This document shows positions 11,265-11,757 of a stretch of DNA of 64,000 nucleotides, piece by piece (positions within the stretch are counted from its first letter, which is position 1; every line of letters starts with the position of its first letter). Under the pieces are notes generated by a model, which was not told where the DNA came from, searched no databases, and saw only the letters and a list, made by a program, of their open reading frames with translations. Position numbers and translations under genes: made by a program. Where the stretch lies: positions 251,782,001 through 251,846,000 of the forward strand of contig OZ024743.1 of assembly GCA_964016885.1 (NCBI GenBank), given 5' to 3'. This DNA is from Eledone cirrhosa. Taxonomy: Eukaryota.

Positions 11265-11378
11265 GAACGCAGAAGTAAATATTTCGAAAGTGGAGCGCAT
11301 TACTTACCATCAACTGCTAGATAATGCTGTAACTAAGGACTACCGTAAAACTAATCGGAGCGTCATTAATGACATCAA

Positions 11379-11539
11379 GTTGTTTCTACATTAGGCACAA
11401 GGCCAGCAATTTCCCAGTGTATTACTGGTACTTCATTTTATCGACCCCGTAAGGATGAAAGGCATCCTTACGGGGTCGATAAAATAAAGTACCAGTAATA
11501 CACTGGATAATTGCTGGCCTTGTGCCTAACGTAGAAACA
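11379..11539. mobile_element. Fold-back (head-to-head) SINE 3' half with 14-bp TSD
   Basis: Arms at 11380-11457 and 11463-11540 with loop aaagg; attaatgacatcaa is duplicated at 11365-11378 and 11540-11553. Confidence 0.88.
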
Positions 11540-11757
11540 ATTAATGACATCAACGATGCTGGGTTTAAAATCACCTCTGATCTCAACCCCTGGACCGGTC
11601 TGAACCTCTGGACCGTATTTCTCCCCACTTTACCCTGAAGGATCACAAATCCAATTTTCCGAACAACCCCTCTATTCGGCTTATTAACCCTACTAAGTCC
11701 GATTTAGGTAGACTTAATAAAAGGACTTTAGATAAAATTATACCTGAAATTAGAAGT

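Follow-up and report, generated by a model that had tools for sequence, protein, structure and literature searches.

A SINE hairpin within a single 14-bp target site duplication in a Penelope-like element, possibly primed from both ends of one cut

The stretch of DNA analysed here (the window; 64,000 nucleotides of Eledone cirrhosa) is animal repeat DNA containing LINEs of L1/Tx1 and RTE-like types, Penelope-like elements (PLEs), SINEs, and (TA)n tracts. The insertion under study is situated in a 5'-truncated and frameshifted PLE on the plus strand (11289–14477), which carries a tail of about 90 bp on the right and an RT-like frame at 11581–12582. Searches with this frame yielded 13 homologues, one of which (P0005) has a weak C-terminal GIY-YIG match (E 0.005); no Pfam family and no PDB sequence match was obtained for the frame itself, and the host is labelled a PLE because of its homologues and its structure. 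On the left the element is bordered by a 111-bp inverted copy of its own 3' end (11178–11288, minus strand; 94% identity to 14275–14387), which adjoins (TA)n and contains a degenerate hammerhead-like motif at 11219–11243. The terminal piece of this PLE (11178–11288, 14275–14387, and 47623–47774), which contains the degenerate hammerhead-like motif, was covered by reads of run X4 roughly 10–40-fold above the coding part.

The initial annotation had described two SINE 3' halves of about 78 bp placed head-to-head around a 5-nt loop, and this anatomy is borne out: the arms 11380–11457 and 11463–11540, 78 nt each, are paired at 74 of 78 positions (four mismatches) and are separated by the loop AAAGG (11458–11462), which reads as the antisense continuation of the left arm (minus strand). 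The hairpin structure is confirmed in the window, with a folding z-score of −21 and equally good folds in none of 200 shuffles. It is flanked, as had also been noticed, by one 14-bp target duplication only, ATTAATGACATCAA, found exactly at 11365–11378 (left copy) and 11540–11553 (right copy), both on the plus strand; the chance of such a match at a fixed place is about 1.5e-8. The last 13 nt of the left copy are quasi-palindromic, with five of six possible pairs. Comparison with other SINE copies identifies the right arm as the last 81 nt of the SINE (11463–11543, plus strand), the tail of which shares the first four nucleotides of the duplication (ATTA), as ordinary SINE copies do. The left arm (11380–11464, minus strand), which carries the loop, represents the last 85 nt of the SINE body in antisense on the top strand, making the arms unequal (85 nt against 81 nt), and it starts at the boundary of SINE body and tail, where the duplication offers TT/AA. 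At the turning point a 2-nt overlap, CA (11463–11464), is common to both arms. Between the left duplication copy and the left arm there is an extra G (11379, plus strand), at a place where A is found in reads of the family (36 of 39 and 24 of 26 reads of run X7, a reduced-representation library); this G may have arisen by transition after the insertion, may have been added without a template, or may have been the initial base of an ancestral truncated copy.

Removal of the insert restores the PLE sequence ..SVINDINDAGF.. in a frame that aligns to a PLE homologue, as the annotation had proposed, and the frame shifts again about 30 nt past the hairpin, at an imperfect 17-nt tandem duplication (11587–11620). 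The empty site was seen in reads, since joints skipping 175 bases, in which the 14-bp sequence is single, occur in four of four read runs and represent other PLE copies without the insert. These skips show that the 14-bp repeat is a real target duplication, and the earlier argument that one duplication means one insertion is thus supported, the empty site pointing to one insertion site. None of the reads or contigs listed bridges the loop, leaving the hairpin without independent read support, and among the 15 joints listed of 211 there was no fold-back at another turning point. At position 11726 run X4 carries another letter at full depth, and for this reason the read runs probably lack this PLE copy, or the copy was lost in filtering; runs X1–X3 contained small shares of the searched words only.

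The unbridged loop is what might be expected of an assembly or library artefact, namely a fold-back chimera, but there are differences between the arms at 4 of 78 sites, the inversion ends at the SINE ends without mirroring the flanks, and both an exact 14-bp duplication and an empty site are in evidence, which makes an artefact extremely improbable. Two separate insertions, the second one reversed exactly at the 5' junction of the first, would agree with the location of the arm differences at family-variable sites and with the abundance of the SINE, head-to-tail neighbours of which occur among read joints and at 18185–18790. This explanation is nevertheless highly improbable, as a second duplication is absent and the second copy would have had to land exactly and to be truncated within 7 nt of the truncation of the first.

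Besides the hairpin, the window contains seven copies of the parent SINE in which the 3' end is present, as well as a single head at its right edge; all seven are plain and single, three of them being clustered at 18185–18790. The clustered copies are arranged head-to-tail, the 18-bp duplication of the middle one starting in the tail of the first. Target duplications, which were sought both unanchored and anchored, were found in four of the seven copies (12 bp with one edit, 18, 16, and 17 bp) and not in the other three; all four begin with ATTA and overlap the SINE tail, which according to the consensus of loose ends in X7 is (ATT)n. The same library gave 149,055 records on a 601-base stretch, with the depth highest over the arms, and high copy number, a simple-repeat tail, and target duplications of variable length, as in SINEs, are all present. 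Full-length copies measure about 190 nt, whereas the hairpin is devoid of the SINE head. SINEs derived from tRNA genes are short and non-coding and have Pol III A and B boxes in a tRNA-like head; in the full copies an A-box-like TGGCAGTATCGG and a B-box-like GTTCAAATCC were recognized by eye, while ARAGORN reported no tRNA genes, and Rfam gave no match on SINE copy 27041. The nearest copy (13812–13920, plus strand), 5'-truncated too, differs over 78 nt from the right arm at one site and from the left arm at three. Folding of the SINE RNA revealed no significant structure (z −0.82) and hence no structural cause for the turning point. Loose ends at 11413 and 11506 indicate a longer SINE relative with extra sequence at the place where the arms differ; judging from these ends, the SINE looks like a deletion derivative of that relative, and the arm differences may be junction variants.

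Several features of LINE-mediated target-primed reverse transcription are present at the locus: the 14-bp duplication, the 4-nt overlap of tail and target on the right arm, and the empty site. The statement of the initial annotation that no LINE in the window shares the SINE 3' end holds for exact matches, but a similar terminus exists: the search for elements sharing this end, confined to the window, gave as its best match the 3' terminus of an L1/Tx1-type LINE copy (11075–11105, plus strand; 21 of 31 positions). With a profile of the last 31 nt of the SINE this terminus, ending at 11105, ranks first of 124,715 window positions, and the terminus of a second L1/Tx1-type copy (3856–3886), also in register with the SINE 3' end, ranks 18th. 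With shuffled profiles the top match fell on a listed terminus in 1 of 300 cases, while an equal score was reached in 31 of 300. When 14 ends were tested, the L1/Tx1-type end, aligned in register, was matched or beaten in 3 of 500 shuffles; the PLE ends were weaker, with 16–17 of 500 shuffles as good and with gapped, out-of-register alignments, and RTE ends in the window gave no match to the SINE tail. The LINE ending at 11105 encodes an L1-like RT and a zf-RVT domain and is, as we assume, of the Tx1 type. The L1/Tx1-type LINE is therefore treated as a candidate partner lineage with modest support, a lead and not a proof; against it, the tail match is weak on score alone, and the LINE copies end in (TA)n or similar sequence, not in (ATT)n. 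SINEs mobilised by RTE elements are described as having a Tn-TA signature, in which a run of T lies some 10 nt ahead of the duplication and another T directly precedes its first A (PMC6007223 and PMC13295347). By eye from the flanks this signature was complete at none of five target sites, a small sample. The T stretch near −10 was recognized in at most one of the five (13812, at −7 to −9), and one site (27040) had the T in front of the A.

The initial annotation had also suggested that the SINE was moved, at least sometimes, by a PLE enzyme, and the PLE insertions of the window do carry inverted 3' ends, as it had said: the host PLE, a PLE at 36188–42056, and six short hairpin-plus-tail elements. 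The PLE at 36188–42056 has identical inverted arms of 539 bp (36188–36726 and 41387–41925), a frame at 36678–38228, and a tail of about 130 bp on the right only, and is probably a young insertion. The six short elements (6077–6190, 29210–29336, 34212–34403, 34926–35096, 58439–58560, and 60343–60534), two of which were spotted by eye and not by the 20-nt scan, are tight hairpins with differing turning points and a one-sided tail of about 80 nt; they lie in or adjoin (TA)n, the copy at 58439 fitting only partly. According to their architecture they are likely 3' ends of a PLE. At 33836–33990 a further hairpin, the 64-nt arms of which pair at 62 positions around a loop of 27 nt, also ends at (TA)n and is perhaps the end of another PLE family.

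On this suggestion the SINE RNA would have been inserted by a Penelope-like RT, an enzyme that makes inverted 3' ends as a rule. In published accounts PLE insertions are commonly accompanied by an inverted truncated copy, and in their pseudo-LTR structures a 5'-truncated inverted copy of the 3' end stands on the 5' side, as in the SINE hairpin (PMC8557442). In the window all six tail-bearing PLE-like ends are hairpins, one of them with a 5-nt loop, and in three of the four that can be scored the loop is on the tail-less arm, as in the SINE hairpin; moreover, the exact SINE tail is absent from every LINE in the window. On the other hand, seven of the eight insertions of the SINE with a 3' end are plain, the hairpin has the target signature of the SINE itself and not (TA)n with a one-sided tail of 80–130 bp, and the SINE 3' end is closer to the L1/Tx1-type end than to the PLE ends in the shuffling comparison. 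PLE copies in the window combine a (TA)n target and a one-sided tail. The SINE hairpin, by contrast, stands in ordinary, non-microsatellite sequence within a clean duplication of 14 bp, and it is devoid of a one-sided tail and of a hammerhead-like motif; the motif scan gave none for any SINE copy, and the comparison of 3' ends gave no in-register match to PLE ends. In the Rfam search no hammerhead passed the gathering threshold anywhere in the window, which makes that search uninformative. The location inside a PLE is uninformative on the enzyme, and snap-back junctions have been reported with the R2 LINE protein too (PMC11371274). The inverted geometry matches, but the suggestion is at best weakly supported, and insertion by a Penelope-like RT is considered very unlikely. 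Loop polarity was tried as a discriminator between SINE and PLE hairpins and rejected, as both polarities occur among PLE-type hairpins, both long PLEs having the loop on the tail-bearing arm. Tail-less PLE-like ends at 15072 and 42142 are not hairpins.

The reading preferred here, to which about an even chance is given, is that in a single insertion the LINE enzyme usually serving the SINE used the two ends of one staggered cut as primers on the SINE RNA tail; this weight and those of the rival explanations are judgements and were not computed. An APE-type LINE endonuclease, possibly of the L1/Tx1-type family, would cut both strands 14 nt apart; the bottom-strand end would anneal to the (AUU)n tail and give rise to the right arm, and the top-strand end, finishing in AA, would anneal to an RNA tail too and give rise to the left arm, its template being either the same RNA, by strand displacement, or a second RNA. 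Both cDNAs would then stop about 80–85 nt in and join at the 2-nt CA/TG overlap, and fill-in would yield the 14-bp duplication. The bottom strand is most likely the normally primed one, because the right junction has the form of the plain copies with its ATTA overlap, and this junction, matching the four of seven copies that have a duplication, would fit double priming. The inverted arms of the PLEs begin at a TAT match to (TA)n, a start compatible with second-end priming, and target duplications of PLEs may go unseen, as they could not be recognized within (TA)n. Against double priming it is to be said that the near-symmetric join, with the turning points of the two cDNAs within 7 nt, and the 5-nt loop are most natural for fold-back, that both cDNAs must stop within these 7 nt, that the G at 11379 needs an extra change, and that there is a single locus the loop of which is spanned by none of the listed reads.

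As a whole, the proposed process would be twin priming taken to full overlap. In L1 twin priming, as described in PMC2912911, both ends likewise prime on RNA and opposite arms are joined at short microhomology within a duplication of about 14–16 bp, the range in which human L1 duplications peak. Classically, however, the second primer is internal and the 3' end is present once, while in the hairpin about 80 nt are duplicated and both arms reach the 3' end. Accordingly, of the classical traits the microhomology (the 2-nt overlap at 11463–11464) and the 14-bp duplication are present, and an internally primed inverted segment is absent. Inverted SINE insertions are very rare in humans, with 1 of 5554 Alu insertions given in the same source. 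On this reading the hairpin would be a rare by-product of a known process and not the sign of a new mobilising enzyme.

The initial annotation had reasoned that duplication of the 3' end requires cDNA snap-back. The geometry is real, but a need for snap-back is not supported; priming on the tail from the second nick or a 1-3-4-2 template switch gives the structure without further steps. In a LINE-driven snap-back one cDNA would have folded on its own CA/TG and been copied back. The first cDNA would be either the left arm or, given a later flip of the loop, the right arm. A tight 5-nt loop is natural for fold-back, and 5' junctions of this kind were described for insertions by the R2 protein, in which the cDNA end primes on cDNA and leaves antisense element sequence at the upstream junction with no PLE involved (PMC11371274, for a site-specific, engineered system in cultured cells). 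With 4 of 78 differences, the two arms have also diverged no further than the inverted arms of the host PLE (94% identity), so that a single template is allowed, and the quasi-palindromic duplication could help a folded strand to rejoin. In the R2 case the loop is expected on the first cDNA; in the SINE hairpin, by contrast, it belongs to the arm across from the junction with the typical form. AAAGG is what the top strand shows at this place, and CCTTT would be expected there had the right-arm cDNA snapped back. The expectation that the loop continues the first-primed cDNA thus fails, with the loop on the left arm and the typical junction on the right, and snap-back requires an added assumption. 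If no flip occurred, the left arm was primed at a site unlike those of the family and the ATTA match on the right is luck; if the loop flipped, all four differences from copy 13812 fall on one arm, two of them to common family states. Besides, the 2-bp fold is not predicted to be stable, as 11440–11464 is unpaired in the centroid structure. Inversion of loops between inverted repeats after their formation is documented (PMC8604942); since loops can flip later, the polarity lowers the probability of snap-back but is not decisive, and snap-back is regarded as unlikely.

A replication-based origin, considered quite unlikely, would start from a plain 5'-truncated SINE, which a later template switch of type 1-3-4-2 would have copied in reverse, setting out from the right duplication and returning at a point 7 nt in. 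Such a switch accounts for the right junction of typical form, for the presence of one duplication only, and for the polarity of the loop. Switches of this type, by which inverted repeats with inverted spacers arise in a single step, make up 23% of the high-confidence human-chimpanzee events in PMC5453318. Those events, however, concern short non-repeat stretches (repeat-masked fragments were filtered out) and have no tie to element ends or target duplications, while here 85 nt would have been copied, over twice the arm length of the other hairpins (21–37 nt), and the copied piece must begin and end at the SINE's own ends. Hairpins unlinked to the repeat families of the window do occur (32407–32475, 34 of 34 paired; 19659–19715, 21 of 21), and locus L022 of another animal is an inverted duplication of a related SINE with its flank. 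The duplication pairs with itself at five of six positions, as do 10 of 771 ATTA sites in the window in the same register, but such self-pairing is less rare when any of three registers is accepted (55 of 771) or the AA end is given (8 of 77), and five of seven pairs are formed by two further SINE duplications; target self-complementarity therefore favours the template switch over double priming only mildly. The match of the arm differences to family variants is left unexplained by the switch. Foldback or inverted duplication at L1 insertions likewise yields a short inverted duplication with the target duplication kept, with the difference that flanking genomic DNA is duplicated there and the inserted SINE is duplicated here (PMC10191854 and bioRxiv 10.1101/2024.12.14.628481). 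The short hairpins 32407–32475, 19659–19715, 22721–22809, and 15803–15841, the arms of which pair perfectly or almost so and which show no obvious target duplication, look like products of replication template switching.

For double priming by a LINE enzyme the question arises whether one template or two were used. The arms differ at 11434/11486, 11413/11507, 11412/11508, and 11390/11530. At 11434/11486 copy 13812 has the state of the left arm and the remaining copies have that of the right arm, and at 11413/11507 copy 13812 has the state of the right arm, so that at two of the four sites the state of each arm occurs in other SINE copies. Both states of a transition are found among the seven other copies at 13 of 78 sites, and the chance of two such coincidences in three transitions is about 0.07; the arm states that match family variants would fit two templates. 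If the inner halves are swapped, the right arm becomes identical to 13812 (0 of 78 differences) and the left arm is four differences away, which hints at two templates, a loop flip, or gene conversion with this neighbour 2.3 kb off. At 11390/11530, where the majority letter is present in 81–93% of X7 reads, both arms and copy 13812 share the minor state, and this suits one template or one subfamily. That one cut was primed at both ends on two SINE RNAs, and that PLE hairpins of the genome may come about by this kind of double priming too, is put forward only tentatively, as a doubtful extension.

Among the steps of LINE and PLE insertion, the priming and joining of the second nicked end are not yet settled. 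If both SINE 3' ends are indeed anchored in one duplication, it follows that second-end priming is possible on the RNA tail itself, and arms from two subfamilies would mean that a single cut can be served by two RNAs; the hairpin would then be the fossil of an insertion complex of two RNAs and two enzymes. If PLE hairpins too arise by double priming, they would provide a genome-wide natural assay of second-strand priming, for which the short PLE-like hairpin family is a better set than the SINE. The locus itself is a dead insertion inside a dead element and has no evident function, although the insert, if transcribed, would be predicted to form a strong hairpin. In the literature searched, mostly at the level of titles and the starts of abstracts, no description of a SINE hairpin with a single duplication, no PLE-driven tRNA SINE, and no partner LINE for this SINE was found, yet each step of the exact structure has a published counterpart; further related literature includes PMC13282606, PMC4758252, PMC9115989, PMC4824008, and PMC5786205.

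Scans with the SINE motif gave no matches in viral contigs and none in genome contigs, while a metagenome scan returned 121 loci (L001–L121). These share with the SINE only a central domain of about 24–47 nt, and because of this short overlap they are taken as other SINE families in other animals and are uninformative on the rate at which the hairpin SINE forms such structures; no tight head-to-head hairpin was found at the motif in the 68 metagenome loci with enough flank. The central domain recurs in several unrelated SINE families on host-containing metagenome contigs, with an estimated 10,000 stretches or so. At L022 the segments 194–562 and 810–1091 form an inverted duplication of a related SINE and about 55 nt of upstream flank, 93% identical and separated by a 247-bp spacer; one copy has an 84-nt internal deletion, and a flanking duplication was not seen.

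Two RTE-like LINEs placed head-to-head in the window (19976–22377 and 23147–25544, 93.7% identity) were considered as the product of one event, and this was rejected because unrelated DNA and (TA)n lie between them and their outer flanks have no shared duplication. The RT protein encoded by the RTE-like LINEs has an internal PHD finger (Pfam E 2.9e-06). Another short repeat family (copies at 25888–26224 and 58641–58977, 97% identical), with a tRNA match at 58910–58967, has an end in common with the RTE-like LINEs and is likely their partner SINE.
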